Under the pieces are notes generated by a model, which saw only the letters and a list, made by a program, of their open reading frames with translations, had not been told where the DNA came from and searched no databases. Made by a program: the position numbers and the translations under genes. A DNA stretch of 64,000 nucleotides. It comes from Candidatus Hadarchaeota archaeon (GTDB lineage Archaea > Hadarchaeota > Hadarchaeia > Hadarchaeales > Hadarchaeaceae). Numbering within the stretch: position 1 is the first letter of the stretch; every line of letters begins with the position of its first letter. This document shows positions 722-59,757 of the stretch, piece after piece. The stretch covers positions 49,683 to 113,682 of the forward strand of contig CAYFIY010000001.1 of the NCBI GenBank assembly GCA_964343275.1, in the 5' to 3' direction.

Positions 722-1531
722 TCAGAAAGCCGTTTCGCAATTTACTCCAAGCTCTCTACAGAGGGATTTAATTTTGGAATCCGTATTTTGCCAAAACTTA
801 CCTTCCCGGATGATACCCGGTAACCGATCCACCAAGCTTGGTTTTTCCTTTTCCAGCTCCGGTTTTAGTCGTTCCATCACATACTCTTTTAAGTTGAGCT
901 TATCGTAGATAACTTTGCTCTTGGTTGAGGCAGCGACTCTGATGATTCGTTTCAAACTATCTTCATCATCGTTGATTTCTGGGATGATTGGCCCTAAGAA
1001 TACCCATGTTTCAACTCCCCGCCCAGAAAATTCTTCCAGAACTTGGGCGCGGGCATCTGGCGGCGGCGCATTGGGCTCAAGCCTACTCGATAATCTAGGG
1101 TCCATTGTGGTTATTGTCACTCCGAGGTCGAATTTTTTAGGCACAATCAAATCAGCATCGCGGGCAACCAAACTTGATTTAGTTTGAATCGACACCAGAA
1201 AATAACTTTTTGATAAGACCTCAAGACACCTTCTAGTAAGTTCCATCTTGGCTTCCAGTGGTTGATATGGGTCGGTCACTGTGCTCACTCCCACTATACC
1301 CTTTGGTTTGCGTTTTATTTCCTGGGCCAGAACCTCGGCGATGTTATGCTTAGCGCGTACGAATTTACCCCAGTCCAGCGCGAGCTGGGGGTTGTGAAGA
1401 ATGGAAGGTGAATAACAATAGCCGCAACTGTGCTGGCAACCGATGTATGGGTTTAGCGAATATTTTAATCCAGGCAGTCTGCTTGGGGAGAGTGCAGTTT
1501 TGCAGGTTACGGATGAATATTTCGCGGTCAT
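722..1531 (-). CDS. radical SAM protein, spore-photoproduct-lyase-like (SplB/COG1533 family)
   Basis: N-terminal NPYIGCQHSCGYCY, which is the CX3CX2C radical SAM motif in the SPL-family context; 4-bp start/stop overlap with the upstream NreA-like gene. Confidence 0.65.
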   Translation of the reverse strand: MTAKYSSVTCKTALSPSRLPGLKYSLNPYIGCQHSCGYCYSPSILHNPQLALDWGKFVRAKHNIAEVLAQEIKRKPKGIVGVSTVTDPYQPLEAKMELTRRCLEVLSKSYFLVSIQTKSSLVARDADLIVPKKFDLGVTITTMDPRLSSRLEPNAPPPDARAQVLEEFSGRGVETWVFLGPIIPEINDDEDSLKRIIRVAASTKSKVIYDKLNLKEYVMERLKPELEKEKPSLVDRLPGIIREGKFWQNTDSKIKSLCRELGVNCETAF

Positions 1532-2853
1532 TTGGTGAACTCCGTTATCTTTCGCTGGAAGAGGGCTTGTTTTAGCAGCTCACTTCTCCCGATCCAGTGT
1601 TTGATCGGGATAGTGAGTTTTTTCATGGCGTGTAAAAATGCGGCCTGGAAATTGTCGAATTTATGTGACTCAATTTTTAACATGTTGCGAATACTTTCTC
1701 TCACGTTCCATACTCCTACAGGTAAGATATAACCTGGATGGATTTCGCGCAGGACTAGCGCGGACGCCTGTCTATCCTGTTGGTTCAATTTCTCCGCAAC
1801 CGCTAGCCTGCATGAATAGTAGCACCCACCCACATCAGGGTAGGTATTTCTACCCCAGTATGTCTCGAAGTCTCCCATCATCGCCGGTCTGACAGCTCTT
1901 TCATCCGGATTCCAGGTGGTTCCCGGAAACCACGCCTCTATCCACTCGAAACTCCAGCGCTCTGGCATCAAGATTGCGACGTAATAGTTGTCTAGGTATC
2001 CAAAGGAGTGGACACGGTATTCATCAATGGTCTCTTTCTGTTTTATCCGATTGATAAGATTTTGCGATAGAATCGTATCTATAGCGGTTATGCTCCACCG
2101 AGTTGGCACTAATCTTCTTTTCTTGGAAATGCCGAACATACCCAGGCTGAACGCCCGCTGTATCCTACTAACTAAAGCTCCTCCGTCGTAGAGGTTCACA
2201 ACTGCGTTAGATGCCTTTAAATCACGGTCATAAAAGGCGTTCTCTATCTTGTGGTCGACAGATATGTCCGACGCTTTAAATGACCTAAGTTGAGCGGAAG
2301 GGCCAAACGGACTGATGTCGCCTCCCAAAGTTAGAGTTCCTCGAGGTACTTTGGACAGGGTTATTTCTGCATCCACGGGACGCTTGCCGAGAGCCAATTC
2401 TTGAAGAGATTCTAGTAGTCTAGTACCCGATTGGGCATCGTGTATGCTCGCTGGCGCTTTTCCTCGAATTAGTGAAAACCTATAGTCGACTATTTCTTTA
2501 ATTTCCTTTCCCATCCAGAGCTCGGGGGTGTCGAGAATTCCAGTTTTTCCGCTGAAGGGCGGGACCATGGGGCCGATGGATACTTTTGGATATCCTCTTC
2601 GACCCACAAAAACTCCTGGCGGGGTTGAGCCAGAAATATGTGGAGACGTTATGCGCATATTAGTTCGAGCGAGCGACTGAGCCTTGACTATTAGTGGACA
2701 GCTCATCTTCCCGCAAAGCATCCGTCCTCCTTTACAGAGAAGGCAGATTGAGCCGGAAGGGGCTTTGTCTTGTATTTCCCTGTATCTAGAAAGTTCGCTA
2801 GCTTGTCCAGGCGTAATTACCTCGCTTAACCACCTAATACGCGGAGATAGCAT
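1528..2853 (-). CDS. NreA-like archaeal DNA repair protein (Nre_N/Nre_C, DUF650/DUF651 family), tentative
   Basis: 441 aa; N-terminal Cys cluster CLLCKGGRMLCGKMSCP typical of Nre N-terminal domains; family assignment from memory of motif only. Confidence 0.45.
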   Translation of the reverse strand: MLSPRIRWLSEVITPGQASELSRYREIQDKAPSGSICLLCKGGRMLCGKMSCPLIVKAQSLARTNMRITSPHISGSTPPGVFVGRRGYPKVSIGPMVPPFSGKTGILDTPELWMGKEIKEIVDYRFSLIRGKAPASIHDAQSGTRLLESLQELALGKRPVDAEITLSKVPRGTLTLGGDISPFGPSAQLRSFKASDISVDHKIENAFYDRDLKASNAVVNLYDGGALVSRIQRAFSLGMFGISKKRRLVPTRWSITAIDTILSQNLINRIKQKETIDEYRVHSFGYLDNYYVAILMPERWSFEWIEAWFPGTTWNPDERAVRPAMMGDFETYWGRNTYPDVGGCYYSCRLAVAEKLNQQDRQASALVLREIHPGYILPVGVWNVRESIRNMLKIESHKFDNFQAAFLHAMKKLTIPIKHWIGRSELLKQALFQRKITEFTK

Positions 2854-2983
2854 GGTTGTCGGACCAATTATTATTTAATATCTCAACATATGAAAAATTT
2901 GTTTTCCTGCAGATAGTTATCCCTCCTTTTGTCCCCCCATAGAATATTTTATATGGAATAAATTAAGATTTACTAAATAGTAT

Positions 2984-3463
2984 TTGAGAGTTGGAATAGC
3001 TAACAATGGAGGTTTTAACATCCCAAAAATCGTCGTAATTTATGACAGCATATCTGGCAACACGGAGAAATTATCTCAGGCAATAGCAGAGGGCGCACGC
3101 GAAGTTCCAGGAATGGAAGCAGACCTGATTAATGCGGAGGAAATAAAACCTGAGGAAATAGCTGAAGCCGATGCGTTCGCCTTTGGTTCGCCATCTCATT
3201 TCAGCATCATGTCTGGAAAAATATTGACCATGTTCACGAATCTCTATCCCCTTAGGCATAAAATAGCCGAAAAACCTGCCTGCGTTGTCACCGCGGGTTG
3301 TGGTGGTCAGGTTACCGTTTTGGATAACATTGATAAAGTCCTGGGTTTGTTCAATCCAAGATTCGTAAAACCCGGGGTAGTGGTTGAGGGCACTCCAAAG
3401 GAATTTGATATAGAACAGGCTAAGAAATTAGGGAAGAAGCTAGCCGAGGCCATTGAAAAATAA
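2984..3463 (+). CDS. flavodoxin-like FMN-binding protein (NAD(P)H-dependent FMN reductase / WrbA-like)
   Basis: KIVVIYDSISGNTEKLSQAIAEGA flavodoxin phosphate-binding loop; about 160 aa. Confidence 0.7.
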   Translation: MRVGIANNGGFNIPKIVVIYDSISGNTEKLSQAIAEGAREVPGMEADLINAEEIKPEEIAEADAFAFGSPSHFSIMSGKILTMFTNLYPLRHKIAEKPACVVTAGCGGQVTVLDNIDKVLGLFNPRFVKPGVVVEGTPKEFDIEQAKKLGKKLAEAIEK

Positions 3464-4572: not shown

Positions 4573-5166
4573 TTGGTGTGGGATAAAATGGCAGAAGTAA
4601 ACACAGGAGATTTTGTTGTGCCCGGGGATTTCCTAGCAACGGCAGAGGAGTTCGTGCCTGGCGACGGAGCTTATGAGGAGGATGGGAAAGTATACGTTGC
4701 AAATATGGGCGTTGTTTTGGTGGACGCCAGGACCAAGCATATTTCGGTGTTCTCCCGTACCCTCGGCGTACCAGTGTTGAAACGTGGTGATATCATAATA
4801 GGTAGAGTCGAGGATGTGAGAGAGCAGACTGCTAACGTATCTGTAGGAGCACTAAAGGGCAGGGAAGATCGTGAGCTACCTCCACCGAACAGGGGAACGA
4901 TACACATATCTCAGACCAGCAACAATTACGTGAAAGACTTAAGTGGGGAGTTTAGGGTAGGAGATATCGTTCGTGCAAAGGTTCTAAACGCCAACAGAGA
5001 ACCTGTTCAGCTGACCACAGCTGGGGATGATCTCGGAGTAATAGTGGCCTCTTGCTCGATGTGTAGGTCCCCACTGATTTGGCAGGATAATAAACTTGCT
5101 TGTCAAGAGTGTGGGAATGTGGAGTTCAGGAAAATGGCCAATGATTATCGAAAGGGAGTGCTCTGA
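4573..5166 (+). CDS. csl4: exosome complex RNA-binding protein Csl4 (S1 domain plus C-terminal Zn ribbon)
   Basis: N-terminal domain, S1 core (GDIIIGRVEDV), C-terminal CSMCRSPL...CQECG zinc ribbon; about 190 aa. Confidence 0.85.
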   Translation: MVWDKMAEVNTGDFVVPGDFLATAEEFVPGDGAYEEDGKVYVANMGVVLVDARTKHISVFSRTLGVPVLKRGDIIIGRVEDVREQTANVSVGALKGREDRELPPPNRGTIHISQTSNNYVKDLSGEFRVGDIVRAKVLNANREPVQLTTAGDDLGVIVASCSMCRSPLIWQDNKLACQECGNVEFRKMANDYRKGVL

Positions 5167-5216
5167 CGGCCAAGGCTAAGCGGGTTATCAATGTTCATGT
5201 AGGAGACTCTAAGAAA

Positions 5217-5366
5217 ATGTTGGATTTCATGAAGAAACTCGGGACTTTGAAAGCTGATTTGGAGGCTCAATCTAGACCAGGATCGGTCAGGATAGTCTTG
5301 CACGGGTCGGGTATGGAAGTTCAAGCCCTTGAGCTCAAAGTTAAAGAATTAATAAAAGCTAAATGA
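5217..5366 (+). CDS. unannotated small ORF (49 aa) between csl4 and rpoL; hypothetical
   Basis: ATG 5217, TGA 5364-5366; MLDFMKKLGTLKADLEAQSRPGSVRIVLHGSGMEVQALELKVKELIKAK; stop abuts the rpoL start; not in the supplied ORF track (under 60 aa). Confidence 0.3.
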   Translation: MLDFMKKLGTLKADLEAQSRPGSVRIVLHGSGMEVQALELKVKELIKAK

Positions 5367-5669
5367 GTGATATTATCCTCTGGTGTTGATATGGAGCTAG
5401 AGTTGGTAGAGAAAGGTGAGGACAGCATTTTAGTAAAAATAGATGGTGAAGATCACACATTTAGTAACCTTCTACGCGGGGAACTGAGCAAGGACGACAA
5501 CGTTGCCTCCGCGATATATACAATAGGACACCCAATAACCGAACCCGTAAAAATTTATGTGAAGGTTAAGAACAAGTCTCCAGAACGCGCTATAATCGAC
5601 GCCGCTGGACGGGTAGCGAAACAGTTGGAAGATCTCCAAAAGCAGCTACGGAAAGAGCTTAAAAAATAG
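5367..5669 (+). CDS. rpoL: DNA-directed RNA polymerase subunit L (Rpo11)
   Basis: EDHTFSNLLRGEL motif (EDHTLGNLL signature of RpoL/Rpb11); about 95 aa; true start probably the internal MELEL. Confidence 0.85.
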   Translation: MILSSGVDMELELVEKGEDSILVKIDGEDHTFSNLLRGELSKDDNVASAIYTIGHPITEPVKIYVKVKNKSPERAIIDAAGRVAKQLEDLQKQLRKELKK

Positions 5670-5694
5670 TAGCGATGTTTGCTTAGGGCTTCAG

Positions 5695-6300
5695 TTGCGA
5701 AGTGTTAGATTTTGGCAAATAAAGCCGGAAATTAGGATTCTAGGCTTGGACGATGGACCGTTCGAGGATGGGTTCGGCGTCAGGGTACCTTTGGTGGGCG
5801 CGGTATTCAGGGGGGGTCGGTGGCTTGATGGTGTATTGACTAGTTCCCTAGAAAAAGACGGTACTGATGTAACTGAGCGTGTAATCGAGATGGTGAGCAT
5901 GAGTCGTCATCGGGGACAGCTTAGGATATTGATGATGGACGGTGTAACTTTCGGCGGCTTTAACGTTTTGGATGTTAGGGAAGTATTCAAAAGGACAGGC
6001 TTACCAGCAATTGTTATTTCTCGGGAAATACCTAATATGGCCAAAATTAGGGAAGCCTTGAAAAATCTACCTGCTTGGCGAGATAGGTTGAAAATTATCT
6101 CGAGGACGGGCAAGATTTATCCCGTAAAAACGAAGGCTTTGGAAAGGCCAGTCTATATGCAATTGATAGGGGTAAAGCGAACGGATGCTGAAAGTGTGGT
6201 AAAATTAAGTTCGACTCAGAGCCTTGTTCCTGAGCCCTTAAGGGTCGCTCACTTGATCGCCACTGCGATTGTTAGAGGTGAGAGTTACGGTAGGGTCTAG
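5695..6300 (+). CDS. UPF0215/DUF99 family protein (endonuclease-V-like fold, COG1628)
   Basis: IRILGLDDGPF N-terminal motif characteristic of DUF99; about 190 aa archaeal protein. Confidence 0.55.
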   Translation: MRSVRFWQIKPEIRILGLDDGPFEDGFGVRVPLVGAVFRGGRWLDGVLTSSLEKDGTDVTERVIEMVSMSRHRGQLRILMMDGVTFGGFNVLDVREVFKRTGLPAIVISREIPNMAKIREALKNLPAWRDRLKIISRTGKIYPVKTKALERPVYMQLIGVKRTDAESVVKLSSTQSLVPEPLRVAHLIATAIVRGESYGRV

Positions 6301-6850
6301 GTCCAGAAAATTTAAACTGCGTGTGCAGTCTAGGAGGAAAATTGTCAAGGTTTTTAGGCACGATCGTGTACTGGATCCCTTAGAATTTATCTTGACGTTG
6401 GGAATCATCTACTTCTTTTTTAGCGGCGTAATGACGGCGGTTTTGGGAACGGATTCTTACTGGATGGCGGTGGTTTCACAAAGTATGAAACATGACGGCG
6501 ATGGGTGGCGAAGCTACTTCGTAAACAATGGTGTGAATTCTTCCAATTTTCCCGTTCAGGGTGGATTTGAACGCGGTGATTTACTAGTCGTTCAGGGTGT
6601 TGCCAAGTTTTCGGAGCTGAACATCGGTGATGTCGTGGTACTAGATCAGGGCGGTGACGTCATCCCACTTGTTCATCGTATCGTTGCATTTTGGGAAGAA
6701 TCAGGGTTGGCTCGCTTTATAACCAAGGGCGATGCTAACAGTTCTCCGCTTTTGATTGAGAGATCAAATATACCCGAACAAATCATCGGAAAGGTGGTCT
6801 TCGCAGTCCCAAAGATAGGTTACATTGGTCTGTGGTTTCAAGGGCAGTGA
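6269..6850 (+). CDS. signal peptidase I (archaeal Sec11-type)
   Basis: TM anchor [21 protein letters not shown] followed by [10 protein letters not shown] (Ser-Met catalytic box) and GDLLVV; exact start uncertain, since the track ORF overlaps the DUF99 3' end. Confidence 0.7.
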
Positions 6851-7244
6851 GGAGATGAAGAAACCCGATCTTGTCGTCGATGTAGTTGTCAAGGTCTTAG
6901 GAGGAGTCGTTTTAGTTAGAAGGAGAAATGACCCTTACTGTGGAAAATGGGCTTTACCAGGCGGATTTGTCAATTATGGGGAAAGGGTGGAAGCCGCGGC
7001 CGTAAGAGAAGCCAGAGAGGAGACGGGGATCAAGGTAAAATTATGTGAGCTGTTGGGGGTTTATTCGGGCCCAAATCGCGATCCCAGAGGACATGTCATC
7101 AGCGTGTGTTTTTTGGGAAAGAGACTGGGGGGAAGGCCAAAAGCTGCCAGCGATGCCAAGGAGATAAAAATATTCAAGGAGATTCCATGGAAGGAGATGG
7201 CGTTTGACCACGCGAAGATTTTAAAAGATGCAGGATTCCAGTGA
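6825..7244 (+). CDS. NUDIX hydrolase
   Basis: Nudix box [24 protein letters not shown]; likely start at MKKPDLVV (6855). Confidence 0.85.
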
Positions 7245-7572
7245 GCTTATGCAATTTTGTCCAAAGTGTGGGAGACTAATGCTCCCAAAGAAAAGCGAGA
7301 AGGAGGTAATTTTGAAATGTAGCTCATGCGGCCATACAGTAAAAAATGAAAAAATGGATGGATATAAAGTGGTCAAGAAGGCGAAGCGCGATGAGGAAAT
7401 AACGCTTTTGGAAGATAATATATCGACTTTACCCACCACTCGGGTCCGCTGCCCGAGTTGCGAAAATGACAAAGCATACTGGTGGTTAAGGCAGACCCGC
7501 TCAGCGGATGAACCAACGACACGCTTTTACCGTTGCGTGAAGTGTGGAAAGGTATGGAGGGAGTACGCCTAG
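7228..7572 (+). CDS. tfs: transcription factor S (TFS; RNA polymerase subunit M-like, TFIIS-type Zn ribbon)
   Basis: N-terminal CPKCG...CSSCG ribbon and C-terminal [39 protein letters not shown] zinc ribbon. Confidence 0.88.
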
Positions 7573-7582
7573 GTGATCTGAA

Positions 7583-7927
7583 GTGGAAGAAATTCAACAT
7601 CGAAGAGCGCCAGCCCGACCGCGAATAATTTCGGAAATAAAAATAGGCGATGAGCGGGTGAAGATTGTGGGCTTGGTGGTGGACAAGAGAGATACCGAGT
7701 TTACCCTAGATGATGGTTCTGGGCGTCTAATTGTGGTTTTTGATGACCCTGCCCTCGCCGAAACTGTCGATATGGGCGCCAAAGTGAGAGTTATTGGGAC
7801 TCCTTTAAGCGTGGCGGGTACTAACGAATTGTATGCCGAAATATCTCAGAGAGTTGATGGATTGGATTTAAATCTGTACAGTGAAGTTAGGCGCGAGGCT
7901 GAGAAACTGGAGCATGAACTCAGGTGA
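7583..7927 (+). CDS. small OB-fold nucleic-acid-binding protein (RPA-like single OB domain)
   Basis: ISEIKIGDERVKIVGLVVDK...GSGRLIVVFDD pattern of an anticodon-binding/RPA-type OB fold; 114 aa. Confidence 0.5.
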   Translation: MEEIQHRRAPARPRIISEIKIGDERVKIVGLVVDKRDTEFTLDDGSGRLIVVFDDPALAETVDMGAKVRVIGTPLSVAGTNELYAEISQRVDGLDLNLYSEVRREAEKLEHELR

Positions 7928-7933
7928 TGAACT

Positions 7934-8689
7934 ATGGTAAGCGCTAAGATGGCGGATTCAAAGGTATGGAAGACATGTATTGGGACGATGGTAAATCTCA
8001 TCGAAGAAGGGGCATTCAAGTTCACCTCAGACGGTGTGAGGATGAAGGCGATGGACCCTTCGCATGTCGCACTAGTTGACTTCGAGCTCCCAGCAGCAGC
8101 GTTCACGGAGTATAACTTCAAACAACCAGTGACGCTGGGGCTTAATCTGGCCGAAATGAACAAGGTAGTTTACCGGGCAAAGGCTGAGGATGAACTGATC
8201 CTTGAACTCGATGAAAATATTCATCGGCTTGCTATTATGTTCAAGGGCACTTCCACAAGAAGATTGAGCTTACCACTCATCGATGTTCGTGAGGCCGAAT
8301 TACCGGAGCCAAAGATTCAGTTTACAGCCACAGCTGATATTTTGGCTGGTGTTATCCAAGATGGGCTTAGAGATGCCGAACTGATAAGTGATAATGTCAG
8401 GTTTGAACTCAATGAGAATGGATTTTACGTCTCGGCCGTAGGGGACAAGGGAACTACCGAGCTTAAACTCGATAAAGGAGATAAGGGTCTTGTAAATCTC
8501 AGTGTTAAGGATCCAGCTCAAGCCATGTTTAACCTTAACTATTTGACGGATATGACGAAGGCTGCAACCTCTGCCGATGTGATAAAAATAAACTTGGGCA
8601 CCAACCTCCCCATCCAACTAGACTTTCCCATCGCCGAGGGAAAGGGGAAACTTCTATTCCTGCTGGCACCGCGGATTGAGTCTGAATAG
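7934..8689 (+). CDS. pcn: DNA polymerase sliding clamp PCNA
   Basis: About 245 aa, two-domain PCNA profile (VDPSHVALVDFELP..., interdomain linker, C-terminal LAPRIE). Confidence 0.88.
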   Translation: MVSAKMADSKVWKTCIGTMVNLIEEGAFKFTSDGVRMKAMDPSHVALVDFELPAAAFTEYNFKQPVTLGLNLAEMNKVVYRAKAEDELILELDENIHRLAIMFKGTSTRRLSLPLIDVREAELPEPKIQFTATADILAGVIQDGLRDAELISDNVRFELNENGFYVSAVGDKGTTELKLDKGDKGLVNLSVKDPAQAMFNLNYLTDMTKAATSADVIKINLGTNLPIQLDFPIAEGKGKLLFLLAPRIESE

Positions 8690-8758
8690 GCTCTAACTAG
8701 AAATAGTTAAATCAGAAGCCGCCAAATAGATCTATATAATTAGTTTGGTGGGCTGAAC

Positions 8759-10021
8759 TTGCTCGCTCCTGAATATTTAGCAGTGCTGGACCCTTTTGCG
8801 GTCGAGGCTAAAAATATAGTTGGATCTTCGCAGCCTGTCGAAACCATGCCTCGAGAGATTATCGAGCGAGCCGTAAAAAGACTGAAGTGGTCGACTAGGG
8901 AGATGTTAGTTGAGCCAATTTTAGAAAATATTCGCGAAGAGGTGCTTTCATTTTACCTGATGTGTCAGGCTATCGCGTCGGTTTCATTTCCGGGCTCGCA
9001 TGAGGTACGCATTATCAGCAACGCCACTAGGGATACTGTAAGATACAGGATGTTTGATATCTTCAAGAGAGGTCAAGGAGAGCTGTGCATGGAGGCAGTC
9101 AAACGTTCAATGAGGATTCAGGAATTTCAAAATGTTGAAGGTATTAAGATAGGTGGGTTTGAAATTCCAAAGGGTGATTTTTACAAGTTACGAGATCAGA
9201 AGCTTGCTGAGGATGATATAGACACTGTGGACGATCGAATTCTTCCCCAGTATCTGCCTAAATACACGGTGTTTTGGACAGATTTGGCTCCATTGCTGAA
9301 ACACAGGCGCAAGGAACTGACCAGGCTGTATCTGGTCGGCGGCTGGGCCGTGATCACGCCGCGAGATCTTTGGGATCTCTATGCAAATTTCATCGCCGTT
9401 AGAACTGAGGAATATATTCAGTTAGTCTACGAGCGAATGTTGGAGTCTGGAGCTCAACCTTCGGGAGTACTTGCTGAGGTCGGCGAGAGAATTTCGTCCA
9501 TTTTACCTAAAGATGTAGGGTTTCGGGATAGTTTCGCTTGGGCTCAAGCTGGGAAGCTGCTCCCTGAATTTTTCCCTCCGTGTATCAAACTAGCCTTAAA
9601 CGGTGTCGGCGCGGGTTTAAGGAATTATGCCGTAATGATGTTGTTGACACCGTTTCTTTCATATGCTCGAGTTGCTCCGTCCGGAAAGATCGCCAATCGG
9701 ATGGCGGACTTCATCAAGGATATCTCGATTGTGCGTGGTGAGATTGCCCCACAGATTGTTGAGGCGGCAGAGAGGTGCAATCCCCCTTTGTTTAAAGATC
9801 AGCCTCAAGAAAAAGCTGGTATTTTTTACCACATGGGTTTCGGAATGACTGCCGAGCCGTTACTCTCCGATTCTGGGAGGTCCAAATGGTACCGAATGCC
9901 TAACTGTAACAAAATTCAGATGTCGGCACCACCTCTCTGTAAACCTGATGAGTTCTGTCGGAAGATAAAGAATCCATTGACCTACTACTTTAGAAAACGG
10001 TCTGAAGCGAGGGCCGGGTGA
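8759..10021 (+). CDS. priL: DNA primase large (regulatory) subunit PriL
   Basis: 420 aa; C-terminal Fe-S domain cysteines (PPCIKLA, ERCNPP, MPNCNK, PPLCKPDEFC); directly upstream of priS. Confidence 0.7.
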   Translation: MLAPEYLAVLDPFAVEAKNIVGSSQPVETMPREIIERAVKRLKWSTREMLVEPILENIREEVLSFYLMCQAIASVSFPGSHEVRIISNATRDTVRYRMFDIFKRGQGELCMEAVKRSMRIQEFQNVEGIKIGGFEIPKGDFYKLRDQKLAEDDIDTVDDRILPQYLPKYTVFWTDLAPLLKHRRKELTRLYLVGGWAVITPRDLWDLYANFIAVRTEEYIQLVYERMLESGAQPSGVLAEVGERISSILPKDVGFRDSFAWAQAGKLLPEFFPPCIKLALNGVGAGLRNYAVMMLLTPFLSYARVAPSGKIANRMADFIKDISIVRGEIAPQIVEAAERCNPPLFKDQPQEKAGIFYHMGFGMTAEPLLSDSGRSKWYRMPNCNKIQMSAPPLCKPDEFCRKIKNPLTYYFRKRSEARAG

Positions 10022-10031
10022 GGTAATTCGG

Positions 10032-10991
10032 ATGGAGATGCGTGAGGCGACGCCAGAGGAACGGAAGAGATTTTACGCGGAAGAATGGAACAAACGTGAA
10101 ATCCCAGACTTTATCTCACATACGCTTTCGCTCAGGGAATTCGGGTTCGATTTGGACGGCAGCGGCCCCAGCCATCGGTACAACCAATTCCTGACGGCTG
10201 ATAACTTGGGCAACTTCTTGCAGAACAGGGCACCTTATTCAGTTTTTGCCAGCGTGGCGTTGTACGAAAGACCATCGGCACGGGAAGGATGGTTAAAATC
10301 GGAACTGGCTCTAGACATAGACGCCAAGGATCTTCCGTTCAAGTATTGCAGGTGCTCGCTTGGGAAAGTCTGTGAGAATTGTATTGGTCTAGCCCGCGAA
10401 GTAGTAAAACAGTTCGCCGAGGTTCTTGTTGGAGATTTGGGGTTACGCAAGATAGATTTTGTCTATTCCGGTCGAGGATTTCACATTAGAGTTAATGACG
10501 ATGCGGTTACGACGCTAGAGGGTAACGAGAGGGCCCAGATTGTCGACTACTTGACGGGCGGTATGATTCCGGCCGATGTCACAATAGCTCAGGGATACCC
10601 CAAGGTCTTTCGCGAAAGAGTTGCAAGGACTTTTGAGGCAATGAACGAGGAAAAATTCCTCGAGGTGAAGGGAATACGGAAGCCGTTAGCCGATAAATTG
10701 TTGAAGGAAAAGACGCGGGCGCTCGAATTAATACGCGGAGGAAAGTTGGAGAATCTTTCCGGCTTGGTGGGGATGGGACCCAAAACATTCAGGCAGTTAT
10801 TGGAATTTATGACAAGGACAAATTTAGGGTTTACAGATGGCAAGGTGACTATTGATACCAAGCGCATCCTTCGTTTGCCTTCAAGTTTACACTCCGGGGT
10901 AAGTATGAAGTGCATGGTGATTCGAGATATTGATAGATTTAGATTGGAGGACGCAGTGCCAAATTTTGTGCATGAGGGGGGAATACCATAA
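10032..10991 (+). CDS. priS: DNA primase small (catalytic) subunit PriS
   Basis: ELALDIDAKDL catalytic DxD motif, CxxC..CxxC zinc knuckle, RLPSSLHSG motif; 319 aa. Confidence 0.85.
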   Translation: MEMREATPEERKRFYAEEWNKREIPDFISHTLSLREFGFDLDGSGPSHRYNQFLTADNLGNFLQNRAPYSVFASVALYERPSAREGWLKSELALDIDAKDLPFKYCRCSLGKVCENCIGLAREVVKQFAEVLVGDLGLRKIDFVYSGRGFHIRVNDDAVTTLEGNERAQIVDYLTGGMIPADVTIAQGYPKVFRERVARTFEAMNEEKFLEVKGIRKPLADKLLKEKTRALELIRGGKLENLSGLVGMGPKTFRQLLEFMTRTNLGFTDGKVTIDTKRILRLPSSLHSGVSMKCMVIRDIDRFRLEDAVPNFVHEGGIP

Positions 10992-11542
10992 TGGGTTTCT
11001 CGCTTGAGGGGTTAGTCAGAATTTACAAGGAAGAAAAAATATCCATGGAACTGGTCGAAATTTCAGATGATTTACATCAGATGGTTGCCAAACACGTGTC
11101 CCAGTTGACACACGAGTTAAAGCACGCAGACTCGTTTAGGAAGGAGTTATTGCAGGAAGAGCTAAGAAATGTGGTATTCATGGTTCAGGAGATTCACTTC
11201 GCGCGGGTCTCGAAGACGTTGAGTATAACAACTCAAAGTCGCCTCCCGGACCAGCTGATTGAACGCGAACGTTGTGCGTTCAGAGAAATAAGGCAGATTT
11301 TGGAAGAACTTCAGGCCGATCTTGTCCGTCCGGCAGTATCGGGAAAGGCCGAGGTTTCCGCTCCTCCCAACATAACTAACGTCCTTCTGTTGGTTTTAAC
11401 CGATGTCCCGGAAAAAATAATCGGTATAGATATGAGAAGTTATGGCCCCTTTACTGAGGGTGAGGTGGTGAACATACCGGAGCCGAATGCGGAAATGATG
11501 GCAAGGCATGGTCTGGCAAGAAAAATAACCGTTAAAGTCTAA
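10991..11542 (+). CDS. GINS subunit Gins15 (Gins51-like), tentative
   Basis: N-terminal helical A-domain pattern (LVRIYKEEKISMELVEISDDLHQMV...ELLQEELRNV) plus a C-terminal B domain; TAATG overlap with the priS stop; gins15-priS linkage is common in archaea. Confidence 0.55.
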   Translation: MGFSLEGLVRIYKEEKISMELVEISDDLHQMVAKHVSQLTHELKHADSFRKELLQEELRNVVFMVQEIHFARVSKTLSITTQSRLPDQLIERERCAFREIRQILEELQADLVRPAVSGKAEVSAPPNITNVLLLVLTDVPEKIIGIDMRSYGPFTEGEVVNIPEPNAEMMARHGLARKITVKV

Positions 11543-17498: not shown

Positions 17499-18287
17499 AT
17501 GACAATTGGTGGTGATATGGCAACGGGATTTGTAGGTCAGATATTTAACTCGATACAGGGGGAGGGGTTATACGCTGGGAGGAGGCAGGTTTTTGTTCGT
17601 TTTGCCGGATGCTCGCTTGATTGCGTATATTGTGATACAGATGGTTTCCGCCAGTTCAAGTTGCCAAAATGCGAGATTGAAACAAGCCCAAGTTCTGGTA
17701 AACTCAATACTGAGTTAAACCCCATGACTCACGCCGCAGTTATCGGCCACTTACGGCGTTTGGTGACCCCTGATATCCACAGCGTATCCCTGACTGGTGG
17801 AGAACCATTGCAGGCAGGGGACTTTTTGTTGGATATCGCCAGAGACTGCAAGCGAGAAGGTTTAGCAACTTATCTCGAGACCAACGGTTCAAACAGCAAT
17901 GCGATGAGGAAAATAGTTCAATATACAGATTTCGCGGCCATCGATATCAAGCTTCCTGAACACCATGCTGTCCCTGCTCATACCTGGCCCAGTTTGCTCC
18001 GGGAAGAATTGTCGTGTGTGAAACTATCGCTCGAAAATGAGGTGGATACTTTTGTTAAGGTTGTGGTGCTTCCTAGAACTAGCGAGAAAATAGTAGCTGG
18101 AGTTTGTAAAAAATTGGTAAAAATTGGGAAGGTTCCTCTGGTGCTTCAACCAGTGTACCCTGCTAGGATGATCAAAAGGTTCCCATCGATGACACACGTT
18201 TATCATATCGCCCAATCTGCGGCCAAGGCGGGCATAAATGAGATAGCAATAATACCTCAAATTAACAAACTTATAGGGGTATTCTGA
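17499..18287 (+). CDS. queE: 7-carboxy-7-deazaguanine synthase QueE (radical SAM)
   Basis: FNSIQGEG...VFVRFAGCSLDCVYCDT radical SAM/QueE signature. Confidence 0.85.
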   Translation: MTIGGDMATGFVGQIFNSIQGEGLYAGRRQVFVRFAGCSLDCVYCDTDGFRQFKLPKCEIETSPSSGKLNTELNPMTHAAVIGHLRRLVTPDIHSVSLTGGEPLQAGDFLLDIARDCKREGLATYLETNGSNSNAMRKIVQYTDFAAIDIKLPEHHAVPAHTWPSLLREELSCVKLSLENEVDTFVKVVVLPRTSEKIVAGVCKKLVKIGKVPLVLQPVYPARMIKRFPSMTHVYHIAQSAAKAGINEIAIIPQINKLIGVF

Positions 18288-18775
18288 TGCGGATCGAGTT
18301 GTCTGAAGGAAGCGGGTTTTCAGCTGCTCACTTCATCTTCGGACACCAGAAGTGCGAGCACTTGCATGGGCACAACTGGCGCCTGAGCGTGACGGTCGAA
18401 GGCGAGCAGAACGAACTAGGCTTGGTTGTCGACTTCCTCGAACTAAAAAGCATCGTAGGTAAAATTTGCGATACCTACGACCATCGTCTTATACTCCCGT
18501 CAAAAAATCAGACCGTAAATGTTCTGTCAAAGGGGAAAAATATCTGCATCTCAGTGGGCGATCGCGAGTTCGAGTTTCCCTGCAAAGATGTCGTCTGGCT
18601 ACCCGCCATCAACACCACGGTTGAGGAGTTTGCGCGAGTGTTCGCCGACGAGATAGTCAAAAGTATGTCAGGTCGTCCGAATGTGGAAAAGATAACAGTT
18701 ACCGTGGAAGAATCGCCTGGATCGAGTGCTAAGGAAGATCGCCGAGTCAAAACCGATCGAAGTTGCAGGTGCTAA
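18287..18775 (+). CDS. queD: 6-carboxy-5,6,7,8-tetrahydropterin synthase QueD (PTPS family)
   Basis: CEHLHGHNW (CxxHGH zinc motif of PTPS); start overlaps the queE stop. Confidence 0.85.
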   Translation: MRIELSEGSGFSAAHFIFGHQKCEHLHGHNWRLSVTVEGEQNELGLVVDFLELKSIVGKICDTYDHRLILPSKNQTVNVLSKGKNICISVGDREFEFPCKDVVWLPAINTTVEEFARVFADEIVKSMSGRPNVEKITVTVEESPGSSAKEDRRVKTDRSCRC

Positions 18776-19203
18776 CTTTGGATGGGGGAACCTATGCCCT
18801 ATTGGTACACGTGCCTTATGAGCTGGCTCTGAAAGTGGGGCAGCTCGGTACGGTCGAATTCAAAAGGGGGTACTACGTGTACGTTGGTTCCGCTCTGGGT
18901 GGACTTTCTGCTCGAGTGCGACGCCATCTGCGCGATAGGAAGAAAATACATTGGCATATAGACCACCTGTTGCTCCACACCCGTGCAATGGATGTGGTGG
19001 CAGCGCGTGGGAAACGTAGAAAGGAGTGTGCGGTGGCTGCTGAGATAGGGAAGCACTTATCGAGCGTCTCTGGGTTCGGATCGAGCGACTGTGACTGTAC
19101 GAGTCATCTTTTTTACTGTCCTGACTTAGACGAACTCCGGAGAATCGTATTTGCAAGTTTCAAGGAATGTGGGGCAAAGTTGGTGAAATCGATAGGACCT
19201 TGA
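18763..19203 (+). CDS. DUF123-like GIY-YIG-fold protein (predicted Uri-superfamily nuclease), tentative
   Basis: GTYALLVHV ... GYYVYVGSA beta-hairpin pair, RRHLRDRK, HWHIDHL motif; 146 aa; overlaps the queD 3' end. Confidence 0.4.
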   Translation: MQVLTLDGGTYALLVHVPYELALKVGQLGTVEFKRGYYVYVGSALGGLSARVRRHLRDRKKIHWHIDHLLLHTRAMDVVAARGKRRKECAVAAEIGKHLSSVSGFGSSDCDCTSHLFYCPDLDELRRIVFASFKECGAKLVKSIGP

Positions 19204-26781: not shown

Positions 26782-27333
26782 TTGGGGAAAGATTCTAGGT
26801 TTAAAATTGAAAAGGAAAGACCACTGGTTTATCTCTACACCGGTGAGGGCGGAGGAAAAACAACCAACGCCTTTGGCTTTGCGCTTAGGGCGATCGGACA
26901 TGGATATAAGGTCATCATAGTGCAGTTCATGAAAGGCAGGGATGACATAGGAGAAGTTAAAGCCTGTAGACGGCTTGCGCCGGAGTGCGAGGTGCATCAG
27001 TTTGGCCGCAAAGATTTCGTGGACCCTACGAACCCAAACACTGGGGATAGGAAGCTGGCCCATGATGCAATGAAATTTGCACGAAGGGCGCTCAAAAAAA
27101 ATCCAGAGCTTCTTATACTGGACGAGGTAAACTTGGCCACTGCTTTTGGTTTGGTCGAGGTGGGAGAGGTGCTCGATCTTTTGAACGAGGCTCCTATGTC
27201 TACAGTGGTTATGCTCACGGGGCGGAGGGCTCCAAGGGCCCTCATCGAAAGAGCGGACTTCGTCTCCGTGATAGACGATATCAAGCATCCGGACAGAGAA
27301 GGCATCCCTGCGACAAAAGGCATTGAATATTAG
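26782..27333 (+). CDS. cobO: cob(I)yrinic acid a,c-diamide adenosyltransferase (CobO/CobA/BtuR type)
   Basis: LVYLYTGEGGGKTTNAFGFALRAIGHGYKVIIVQFMKG P-loop signature of CobA family. Confidence 0.85.
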   Translation: MGKDSRFKIEKERPLVYLYTGEGGGKTTNAFGFALRAIGHGYKVIIVQFMKGRDDIGEVKACRRLAPECEVHQFGRKDFVDPTNPNTGDRKLAHDAMKFARRALKKNPELLILDEVNLATAFGLVEVGEVLDLLNEAPMSTVVMLTGRRAPRALIERADFVSVIDDIKHPDREGIPATKGIEY

Positions 27334-27980
27334 TCAATTTTTCTTTGTTTTGTTCGGCCCTCTATTCTCCGTGCTGTTGCCCATGATTTTCTGGCGAAAT
27401 CAGGCAACTTCCCATGTTCTTGTACCCATGAGTTGAGAAAAGTTATCGTGCGAGGGTCAGCGGGATATCCCGAGCCGAAATCTCCATATCGCCCGTGCAG
27501 TTTGGCCACGCAATGGTCGCGGTACACCTTGGCAACTATTGAGGCGGCAGCCACCAAAGGATAGTTGCGATCGGCAAAGTTCTCGACTACAAGTTTGGGC
27601 CTGACTTTCAAGTACTTTCGTATCCTCTTTTCGAAAAGTTCCGGGTTGGGATCGGGGGAGTCCATATATACTAATTTCGGGTTTAGCTTTTCGATGAGCT
27701 GGGCGAATTTCATCGCCTCTAACTCGTTGAGGTTGACATTTTTGACAAGTCTGGATTCATCTATCTCCACGTTAGAAATTTCGATTATCTCGACCTTGGA
27801 TGCTTTTTTTCTTATGAGTTCCGCAAGTTTCTCGCGTCTTTTTGGCGAGAGTATTTTCGAGTCCCTTATCCCATCGGACTTTAACTCTTCTTGCACTCGC
27901 TCGTCAGAGAGCACGACGCCCAAAACCATCGGACCCAAAATTGGTCCTCTCCCAGCCTCGTCAGCACCAGCGATCATCAT
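27330..27980 (-). CDS. rnhB: ribonuclease HII
   Basis: IAGADEAGRGPILGPMV catalytic N-terminus; 216 aa. Confidence 0.88.
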   Translation of the reverse strand: MMIAGADEAGRGPILGPMVLGVVLSDERVQEELKSDGIRDSKILSPKRREKLAELIRKKASKVEIIEISNVEIDESRLVKNVNLNELEAMKFAQLIEKLNPKLVYMDSPDPNPELFEKRIRKYLKVRPKLVVENFADRNYPLVAAASIVAKVYRDHCVAKLHGRYGDFGSGYPADPRTITFLNSWVQEHGKLPDFARKSWATARRIEGRTKQRKID

Positions 27981-59652: not shown

Positions 59653-59757
59653 GGGCCCGTGGCCAAACCAGGATAAGGCGGCAAGTGGAAACACCCGCAA
59701 GCCTTCTATCCAATCGAGGATAGCTGCAGATCGTGGGTTCGAATCCCACCGGGCCCG
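59653..59757 (+). tRNA. intron-containing tRNA gene (105-nt precursor, intron about 30 nt); isotype unresolved, intron position apparently non-canonical
   Basis: Perfect acceptor GGGCCCG/CGGGCCC plus discriminator G; D-arm GCC-AAACCAGGATAA-GGC; T-arm GTGGG-TTCGAAT-CCCAC with variable AGATC; the 47-nt middle region contains hairpin CTATCC-AATCGA-GGATAG; no CCA encoded. Confidence 0.6.

Follow-up and report, generated by a model that had tools for sequence, protein, structure and literature searches.

To our knowledge, Nre is one of the few near-universal archaeal PCNA partners without a known activity, and the SPL-like (COG1533) radical-SAM proteins, which are widespread and damage-associated, have no known substrate outside spores. 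Adjacency of genes for Nre and SplB-like proteins, in some cases with overlap, was published by Giroux and MacNeill (2016, Mol Microbiol) and reviewed by MacNeill (2016, PMC4929162). In that review the paralogue encoded next to SplB is named NreB, its PCNA-interacting PIP motif is described as 'less clear-cut', and the distribution of Nre is given as archaea only. A. fulgidus NreA binds PCNA in the yeast two-hybrid assay, and binding by Haloferax volcanii NreA was inferred genetically (PMC4929162); the latter protein is required in the UvrABC pathway for PIP-dependent repair of DNA damaged by mitomycin C, and its role is epistatic with uvrABC (PMC4929162; PMC7776575). Among bacteria, splB-like genes of COG1533 are LexA/SOS-regulated in many phyla (PMC4951493; PMC8565304) and show linkage to the ImuB-C repair operons (PMC3765255). 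The PCNA dependence and repair role of Nre, and the damage-response context of the COG1533 enzymes, are taken here from this literature. Neither the Nre proteins nor the SPL-like enzymes of non-sporulating organisms have a known biochemical activity (PMC4929162). An earlier note on this DNA called the joint function little characterised biochemically, and a search of the available literature for biochemical or structural studies of Nre or archaeal SplB-like proteins after 2016 found none.

The locus described here lies in a window of 64,000 nucleotides, meaning the whole stretch of DNA that was analysed, from the chromosome of an uncultured Hadarchaeota archaeon, and adds a Hadarchaeota example of this known pairing; knowledge is unchanged in kind, as the gene association has been known since 2016 and is not new here. 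The 2016 survey by Giroux and MacNeill is said possibly to have lacked Hadarchaeota. The two genes show the same adjacency and overlap as the archaeal Nre/SplB-like pair of PMC4929162, and the Nre proteins of both have an N-terminal Cys4 and a C-terminal PIP-type motif. What is added is a quantified linkage, evidence that this linkage extends beyond PIP-poor Nre paralogues, and a first fold hint for Nre. The features are collected in Table 1. The present analysis itself established which families the proteins belong to, their motifs, the gene overlap, the conservation of the adjacency and the SPL-like fold.

Table 1 Features of the locus, with positions counted from the first letter of the window
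Feature	Position	Strand	Basis or remark
SPL-like (COG1533 family) radical-SAM protein gene, 269 aa	722..1531	-	ORF
Radical-SAM cluster motif NPYIGC32QHSC36GYC39Y	1412..1453	-	SPL-type GCx3CxYCY form
nre, 441-aa Nre family DNA-repair protein gene	1528..2853	-	ORF, Pfam match
ATGA stop/start overlap, nre / radical-SAM gene	1528-1531	-	4 shared bases
PIP-like QRKITEF, residues 433-439 of Nre	1537..1557	-	Translation, extreme C-terminus
GGAG, 8 nt upstream of radical-SAM start	1540-1543	-	Sequence
Cys4 motif C37-x2-C40-x6-C47-x4-C52 (CLLCKGGRMLCGKMSC)	2698..2745	-	Translation, Nre N-terminus
Divergent intergenic region, 130 bp	2854..2983	.	Sequence
A/T-rich TATA-like element ATATTAAATAATAAT	2867-2881	-	13 nt upstream of nre ATG
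PCNA gene (context, outside operon)	7934..8689	+	Pfam PCNA_N + PCNA_C

The Nre protein

Matches to the two Nre domains extended over the full length of both profiles. In the Pfam scan both exceeded the gathering score: Nre_N, at residues 46-315, reached 323.5 bits (cutoff 25) over all 270 profile positions, and Nre_C, at residues 330-439, reached 131.8 bits (cutoff 27) over all 110. Orthologues in Hadarchaeota MAGs bear the name 'Nre family DNA repair protein'. The protein had earlier been described tentatively as NreA-like. Membership of the Nre family was borne out, but the NreA label is unproven because the literature gives the SplB-adjacent paralogue the name NreB (PMC4929162). The NCBIfam model NreA_Halo (NF041387) matched residues 65-428 with an E value of 2e-72, and the score of 244.5 bits lay far below the cutoff of 700 for this haloarchaeal NreA equivalog. 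With its 4-bp overlap the gene has one trait of NreB in the sense of Giroux and MacNeill, that of adjoining or overlapping a SplB-like gene; NreB in that sense is also a second paralogue, found beside NreA in one genome and clustering with A. fulgidus NreB. No second Nre paralogue was found within the 64-kb window. A search with a divergent Nre labelled 'Hadarchaeota' (L032) returned mostly nameless proteins together with Hydrothermarchaeales and Methanoperedens, and showed no second Hadarchaeota paralogue. H. volcanii NreA (HVO_0734) belongs to the same family and likewise ends in a PIP motif, but haloarchaeal NreA is without the Cys4 motif that is present here (PMC4929162), and no SplB-like partner is mentioned for the H. 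volcanii protein in PMC4929162, whereas the present Nre is paired.

The N-terminal cluster, which had been reported as CxxCKG...C..C, was found in the form CxxCKGx4Cx4C and reads in full C37-LL-C40-KGGRML-C47-GKMS-C52. All four cysteines are invariant in 54 homologues (63-78% identity), as are W8 and L9, and Cys4 was present in 78 of 81 Nre family members from different species. Invariance of these six residues marks the start of the 441-aa ORF as the true one; one public gene call of 397 aa (start M45) splits the Cys4 motif in half. Following PMC4929162, the four cysteines are presumed to form a Zn or Fe-S site. The distance from the TATA-like element to the ATG fits a leaderless transcript, and by archaeal TATA spacing a leaderless nre promoter is presumed at this element.

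The PIP motif that was sought in the C-terminus on the suggestion of the earlier note proved to be present and conserved. Q433 is invariant in the 54 homologues, and at least 90% of them retain I436 and F439. Among the 74 loci whose linkage status is known, 71 have the pattern Qxx[ILMV]xx[FYWH] within the last 22 aa of Nre; it is equally common with a radical-SAM neighbour (40/43) and without one (31/31). Compared with the reference pattern Qxx[ILM]xx[FY][FY], position 8 is a non-aromatic Thr, and the motif is therefore a relaxed PIP. Based upon the A. fulgidus and H. volcanii NreA data (PMC4929162), QRKITEF is predicted to be the PCNA-binding peptide of Nre. In this respect the linked Nre described here, with its well-conserved QxxIxxF, differs from the NreB of PMC4929162 and its 'less clear-cut PIP'.

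Structural prediction gave only a rough outline of the fold, a ribosomal-S5-domain-2-like domain together with what may be an OB domain; confidence was low for the model's N-terminal half, including the Cys4 region. Comparison of the model with the PDB by Foldseek gave no significant match (best E 0.03, TM at most 0.17), and a direct sequence search against solved structures gave no match. No viral relatives of Nre were found in IMG/VR. All but one of 80 Nre loci were archaeal, and the lone 'bacterial' sequence, a 2.3-kb contig, clusters with Methanomethylophilaceae.

The radical-SAM partner

The 269-aa protein contains a CxxxCxxC motif and matches PF04055 above the gathering score, which places it in the radical SAM superfamily. 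Its cluster motif reads NPYIGCQHSCGYCY, and the segment C32QHSC36GY38C39Y40 aligns with tGCmghChYCY of SPL 4fhc; the motif, including Y38 and Y40, is at least 95% conserved among 43 Nre-linked radical-SAM proteins and the window protein. The nearest sequence families in NCBIfam, matched over residues 8-255, were PA0069 (E 5.9e-43; 147.2 bits against a cutoff of 360) and Rv2578c (E 6.3e-35; 120.7 bits against a cutoff of 430). These matches are well below the family cutoffs, and their significance places the protein within the wider COG1533 family. Judged by these profiles, the protein belongs to a separate archaeal subfamily of COG1533. The PA0069 and Rv2578c proteins of bacteria have repeatedly been tied to the DNA-damage response and have no known substrate; they are longer (profiles of 317-348 positions) and partner with LexA or ImuB-C systems, not with Nre and PCNA.

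The SPL-like designation given earlier stood as far as the CxYCY motif and the structural comparison are concerned, and did not extend to SPL proper. In the predicted model, SPL is clearly the closest solved fold, and its alignment is the longest, at 236 residues against 202. No SPL equivalog was among the NCBIfam matches (E ≤ 0.1), a phmmer search of the PDB gave no match, and the profile of the radical-SAM protein matched SPL 4fhc without significance (E = 3 over 33 residues only). Identity to SplB of Geobacillus thermodenitrificans (PDB 4fhc) is 14%; SPL chains, at 340-368 aa, exceed the protein in length by about 70-100 residues. C102 is conserved in 36 of 44 partners and lies in a predicted helix, at a spacing from the cluster unlike that of the SPL H-donor Cys (B. 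subtilis C141). The present hosts are anaerobic archaea that form no spores, and spore photoproduct would not be expected in them (PMC4929162). By its sequence, then, the protein is not a bona fide SplB.

A radical-SAM protein encoded beside Nre might act on Nre itself, introducing a radical or some post-translational modification as an activase or maturase in the manner of PFL-activating enzyme. Glycyl-radical activase HMMs did match the 269-aa protein, but over 35 residues only (E 5.5e-4 and 0.034), and the SPL-type CxYCY and the longer SPL alignment point elsewhere. No glycyl-radical domain was among the Pfam matches of Nre, and many Nre proteins with identical conserved residues have no radical-SAM neighbour. 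An activase role is thus quite improbable. The reading of either protein as part of a defence system was dropped, as neither matches PADLOC models.

A conceptual analogue of the present pair is the bacterial radical-SAM/DUF4130/UDG-like cassette (COG4277-COG1573), in which a radical-SAM enzyme occurs with an uncharacterised DNA-metabolism protein in damage-inducible operons (PMC3765255; PMC8565304). Both the radical-SAM family and the partner differ from those described here, and DUF4130 was not matched in Nre (Pfam scan, E ≤ 0.1).

Conserved gene pairing

Both open reading frames and their 4-bp overlap were found as the earlier note had described them. The ATGA overlap, together with the GGAG placed 8 nt before the second start, makes translational coupling of the two genes likely, and an identical 4-bp overlap was observed at four Hadesarchaea loci (L001, L002, L004 and L007). 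Linkage of the gene pair was surveyed in the 80 closest Nre loci, each from a different archaeal species, of which 73 were informative. A radical-SAM gene of the same subfamily adjoins Nre at 42 of these (~58% of close relatives), directly downstream in 39 cases, 34 of which lie no more than about 90 nt from the stop of Nre, and divergent in three, with 84-119 bp between the genes. About eight lineages are represented, and linkage was seen in Hadarchaeota, Nitrososphaeria, Bathyarchaeia, Methanomassiliicoccales, Thermoplasmata, Methanoperedens, Micrarchaeia, Aenigmatarchaeota and Methanomethylicia; one locus labelled Methanosarcinales (L051) has the pair. The pairing is far above chance. It is also clade-structured, with gains and losses. 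At the remaining 31 informative loci, which include most Bathyarchaeia and the ammonia-oxidising Thaumarchaeota, the radical-SAM gene is absent within 6 kb of Nre, so a nearby partner is not strictly needed by Nre. No Nre-radical-SAM fusion protein was among the matches listed, and all-against-all clustering of neighbouring ORFs yielded no third conserved operon member.

The breadth of this adjacency bears on the suggestion that the radical-SAM enzyme has RNA or a small molecule as its substrate and that its place after nre is an accident of genome organisation spanning several lineages. Recurrence in about eight archaeal lineages cannot be chance, the nearest families are DNA-damage-associated COG1533 groups, and the tRNA neighbour is not part of what is conserved; we consider this explanation very unlikely.

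Proposed function

No better clue to the functions of Nre and the SPL-like proteins is available than this conserved pairing, with its probable translational coupling. In the reading that we favour and hold to be fairly probable, the operon of nre followed by the SPL-like radical-SAM gene encodes two co-translated proteins that work as a functional pair in the processing of DNA damage; the ATGA overlap and the conserved adjacency lend support to the joint DNA-repair function that had been proposed from the tight coupling. Nre would be the DNA- and clamp-binding component, with its C-terminal QxxIxxF docking on PCNA and its body (the Cys4 knuckle, the possible OB-like barrel and the ribosomal-S5-domain-2-like domain) touching nucleic acid. 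The 269-aa partner would bind a [4Fe-4S] cluster through C32, C36 and C39 and cleave SAM to a 5'-deoxyadenosyl radical, which would take a hydrogen atom from a damaged nucleotide so that the lesion is reversed or opened, as in spore photoproduct lyase. Nre would in this way deliver the chemistry of the radical-SAM enzyme to DNA loaded with PCNA. We infer that the two proteins cooperate physically and that DNA is the radical-SAM substrate. These archaea inhabit dark, anoxic places, and the lesion is therefore probably a crosslink or a saturated-base adduct that does not arise from UV.

The shared transcript could instead reflect co-regulation of two proteins that both serve genome maintenance but work separately: Nre would belong to a PCNA/NER-type pathway, and the radical-SAM protein would be a stand-alone direct-reversal enzyme like the SOS-regulated SplB-like proteins of bacteria. 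Bacterial COG1533 enzymes do occur and are regulated without Nre, since Nre is confined to archaea (PMC4929162; PMC4951493; PMC8565304); the 31 of 73 loci that have no such neighbour and the clade-structured linkage fit independent action as well. Against this, the 4-bp overlap and very short spacers are kept across distant phyla, adjacency survives inversion to the divergent order in three lineages, and such a pattern is more typical of physically interacting partners. Co-regulation alone is therefore judged unlikely.

A bolder form of the functional-pair reading, offered tentatively and rather doubtful at this stage, is that Nre and the SPL-like protein are the two subunits of a radical-SAM DNA-repair machine docked on PCNA. 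Nre would hold the lesion at a clamp-loaded DNA end while the partner uses hydrogen abstraction by the 5'-deoxyadenosyl radical to reverse a non-photochemical lesion, for example an intrastrand crosslink or a saturated or alkylated base. If true, the pathway would be the first of the radical-SAM repair type to be coupled to the replisome, and a biochemical function would be gained for Nre as well as for the SPL-like enzymes of non-sporulating organisms.

Genomic neighbourhood

The window also encodes PCNA, to which the PIP motif of Nre is predicted to bind. The PCNA gene lies about 5 kb from nre, and this proximity was rejected as a functional clue, as the synteny is kept only in Hadesarchaea loci (L001-L004). 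The divergent flavodoxin-like gene was rejected as a dedicated reductant, being unconserved even in other Hadesarchaea loci. A tRNA neighbour of the pair lies outside the conserved neighbourhood. The radical-SAM gene is the sole widely conserved neighbour of Nre, and the others are lineage-specific, among them an Mre11/SbcD-like gene in AOA and a Nudix gene in a few loci.

Gene pair and translation start

ORF analysis recovered two minus-strand genes at exactly the coordinates claimed in the earlier note (722-2853), encoding the Nre protein and its radical-SAM partner. The claimed 4-bp overlap is the ATGA at 1528-1531, common to the Nre stop and the radical-SAM start, and sequence inspection placed a GGAG 8 nt 5' of the radical-SAM ATG. 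Translation gave the proposed N-terminal cysteine cluster of Nre (C37-LL-C40-KGGRML-C47-GKMS-C52, hereafter the Cys4 motif), the radical-SAM motif NPYIGCQHSCGYCY in the 269-aa protein, and QRKITEFTK as the C-terminal end of Nre.

Public gene calls for the start of nre (2698-2853, minus strand) differ, at 397 or 441 amino acids. The shorter call begins at M45, right after a GGAGG that the conserved Lys41-Gly42-Gly43 codons form, and breaks the invariant Cys4 motif in two. The longer start is supported because 54 homologues (63-78% identity) share W8, L9 and the four cysteines without exception, and because the TATA-like ATATTAAATAATAAT, 13 nt 5' of the nre ATG, has the spacing expected for a leaderless archaeal mRNA. 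Conservation of residues 1-44 favors the 441-aa form.

Coordinates of the gene pair and of other features (in the window unless a compared Nre locus, L-number, is named)
Feature	Position	Strand	Remarks
Nre ORF	1528..2853	minus	441 aa
Radical-SAM ORF	722..1531	minus	269 aa
tRNA-Tyr(GTA)	617-704	plus	88 nt; convergent with radical-SAM gene, ends 17 nt from its stop
Flavodoxin-like gene (Flavodoxin_1/FMN_red)	2984-3463	plus	divergent from nre promoter region
Replication/repair island	5695-11542	plus	3-9 kb from nre: endonuclease dU, Nudix, TFS, small OB-fold protein, PCNA, primase PriL and PriS, Gins51
Second, unrelated radical-SAM gene with Fer4_12 domain	17499-19203 (cluster)	plus	taken as QueE-like
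RNase HII	27330-27980	minus	C-terminus ...TKQRKID, then stop
Third tRNA-like region	59653-59757	plus	105 nt; Rfam 42.9 bits, missed by ARAGORN
L032 Nre	1538-2827		5-kb contig labelled Hadarchaeota; divergent sequence, 47% identity to window Nre
L014, L015, L017, L020 Mre11/SbcD-like gene	about 4640-5960	minus	divergent, immediately beside nre
L049 Nudix gene	4949-5317		between nre and radical-SAM gene
L079 Nudix gene	7220-7669		between nre and radical-SAM gene

Conservation of the pairing

In a one-genome-per-species scan, Nre was encoded at no fewer than 597 loci, the best 80 of which (44-76% identity to the query) were analyzed. A radical-SAM homologue lay directly downstream on the same strand at 39 loci and divergently, 84-119 bp upstream, at three; 31 loci with at least 1.5 kb of downstream sequence had none on the fetched locus, and seven were uninformative, their flanking sequence being too short. 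The radical-SAM gene therefore adjoins nre in 42 of 73 informative loci among these best 80, and the pair is conserved beyond the window. Most downstream radical-SAM genes (34/39) begin no more than about 90 nt from the Nre stop, with an overlap in several cases. Clustering of all neighboring ORFs left the radical-SAM gene as the sole widely conserved nre neighbor.

On a neighbor-joining tree linkage was clade-structured yet interleaved. All Hadesarchaea, all Methanomassiliicoccales/Thermoplasmata and most Methanoperedens loci were linked, as were some Nitrososphaeria and some Bathyarchaeia; the divergent arrangement occurred in Micrarchaeia, Aenigmatarchaeota and one Methanomethylicia locus, and most Bathyarchaeia and the ammonia-oxidizing Thaumarchaeota were unlinked. 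Four of these Thaumarchaeota, without an adjacent radical-SAM gene, carry an Mre11/SbcD-like phosphoesterase gene beside nre, a lineage-specific DNA-repair neighbor. A Nudix hydrolase gene intervenes within the pair at two Thermoplasmata/Methanobacteriota loci, and in Hadesarchaea one is located some 4 kb from nre; this may be a weak recurrent association. One pair, on a 2.3-kb contig binned as 'Anaerovoracaceae bacterium' (L052, CAVFUJ010000143.1), clusters with Methanomethylophilaceae (L076); it almost certainly reflects a bacterial bin contaminated with archaeal DNA rather than a true bacterial Nre.

Nre family assignment and predicted structure

The 441-aa protein matched the whole Pfam profiles Nre_N (E = 1.9e-96) and Nre_C (E = 1.2e-38), and its score against the haloarchaeal NreA equivalog (E = 2e-72, 244 bits) fell under the cutoff of 700. 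It therefore belongs to the Nre family without being a haloarchaeal-type NreA, and the earlier label 'NreA-like' stays tentative. Among 1.84 billion proteins the family has 1139 representatives at 50% identity, a modest number, and no relatives were found in viral contigs.

The suggested search for a PCNA-interacting (PIP) motif found QRKITEF at the C-terminus, and a PIP-like motif is conserved among relatives, in 40/43 linked and 31/31 unlinked Nre sequences. Of 81 Nre sequences, 78 have the Cys4 motif, linked and unlinked alike, and linked proteins form no clade separate from unlinked ones on the neighbor-joining tree. The SplB-adjacent paralogue named NreB was described as PIP-poor (Giroux & MacNeill 2016, as reviewed in PMC4929162), whereas the linked proteins here carry conserved PIP-like motifs. 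No second Nre gene was found within the 64-kb window. The L032 Nre carries a canonical PIP (QKRIDEFF) and clusters with a Thermococci locus, with Hydrothermarchaeales and Methanoperedens as named relatives; over 2.2 kb of downstream sequence no radical-SAM gene was found. This Nre may be either a second (NreA-type) Hadarchaeota paralogue or from a mis-binned contig.

The AlphaFold model of Nre (pLDDT 70.9, pTM 0.74) was confident in the C-terminal half (residues about 255-435); over the Cys4 region and a large part of the N-terminal half, confidence was low. In model and alignment, the family-wide GGCYY (residues 342-346) opens a helix of the S5-like domain. Folds listed for comparison were GHMP kinases, MutL/GyrB transducer domains, Lon protease domain, EF-G domain IV, ribosomal proteins S5 and S9, RNase P protein, RNase PH, LpxC, IGPD and Fae. 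The model suggests, as a lead rather than a demonstrated homology, that Nre may be composed of nucleic-acid- or phosphate-binding modules.

The radical-SAM partner and proposed function

The partner scored above the Pfam Radical_SAM gathering score. Its nearest curated families were PA0069 (E = 5.9e-43), Rv2578c (E = 6.3e-35) and 'radical SAM mobile pair protein B', all under family cutoffs, and its orthologues are labelled 'DNA repair photolyase' or 'SPL family radical SAM protein' by sources. Against the solved spore photoproduct lyase (SPL, SplB; 4fhc) phmmer found nothing, and a profile comparison gave a non-significant E = 3 over 33 residues, pairing vGCehgClYCY with tGCmghChYCY of SPL. 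The claimed SPL likeness stands at the fold and motif level; that the protein is an SplB is unsupported, because there is no equivalog match, the chain is 70-100 residues shorter than SPL and the H-donor Cys is not placeable. Nre-linked radical-SAM proteins form a coherent subfamily sharing NPYxGCxHxCxYCY, DPYQxxE, TKS, RD, EP and GP.

Conserved linkage and family matches support the joint DNA-repair interpretation proposed earlier, with function itself taken from analogy and literature. The best-supported reading is that the two genes probably form a functional pair, translated together, that processes DNA damage. In this reading Nre would bind DNA and be tethered to PCNA by QxxIxxF, and by SPL analogy the [4Fe-4S]/SAM-derived 5'-deoxyadenosyl radical of the partner would act on a DNA lesion; action of the radical-SAM protein on Nre itself seems improbable. 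Main weaknesses of the functional pair include the 31 unlinked loci and the absence of an Nre-radical-SAM fusion among the matches listed, and co-regulation of the two proteins without cooperation is an unlikely though more credible alternative. If these Hadarchaeota are anaerobes of the subsurface or of deep water, they seem unlikely to be exposed to light. In non-sporulating archaea, spore photoproduct would not be expected (PMC4929162). Bacterial COG1533 splB-like genes are LexA-regulated in many phyla (PMC4951493, PMC8565304) and tied to ImuB-C operons (PMC3765255), which independently supports a DNA-damage role for the radical-SAM family; a non-DNA substrate is very improbable.

The Nre/SplB-like pairing was published in 2016, and the idea in the earlier note is therefore correct and not new. 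MacNeill's 2016 review of Giroux & MacNeill 2016 (PMC4929162) describes Nre proteins as archaea-specific and of about 400 aa, reports mitomycin C sensitivity of H. volcanii ΔnreA that is PIP-dependent and epistatic with uvrABC, and states that biochemistry was attempted without success and that the function of both proteins is unknown. No mechanism was found in the later literature consulted. The window pair is a Hadarchaeota addition to a gene pair already described; by itself the locus does not make the question of mechanism more testable, and it will not surprise a specialist. Future biochemistry can still draw on the linkage statistics, on the comparison of PIP and Cys4 motifs and on the fold hint.

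Genomic setting

Identical proteins are found on marine-metagenome contigs as long as 133 kb, and the nearest named relatives are Hadesarchaea/Candidatus Hadarchaeum MAGs. The setting is core chromosome rather than a mobile element, and PADLOC matched neither protein to any defence system. Synteny of PCNA and Nudix with nre was confined to the Hadesarchaea loci (L001-L004); further out in the window lie type IA topoisomerase, RNase HII, RFC small subunit, RPA and RadA. The flavodoxin-like product is a plausible one-electron donor candidate for the radical-SAM enzyme, and its position next to nre is not conserved in the other Hadesarchaea loci (L001-L004). At its C-terminus RNase HII has just half a PIP box, the initial QxxI, lacking the aromatics, and its QRKI equals the first four residues of the Nre motif. 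The tRNA-Tyr probably contains an intron, as, probably, does the third tRNA-like region, since ARAGORN misses what Rfam finds. After the QueE-like gene come genes for a 6-pyruvoyl-tetrahydropterin synthase (QueD-like) and a DUF123 protein, with tRNA-Thr adjoining, and this looks like a 7-deazaguanine precursor cluster.
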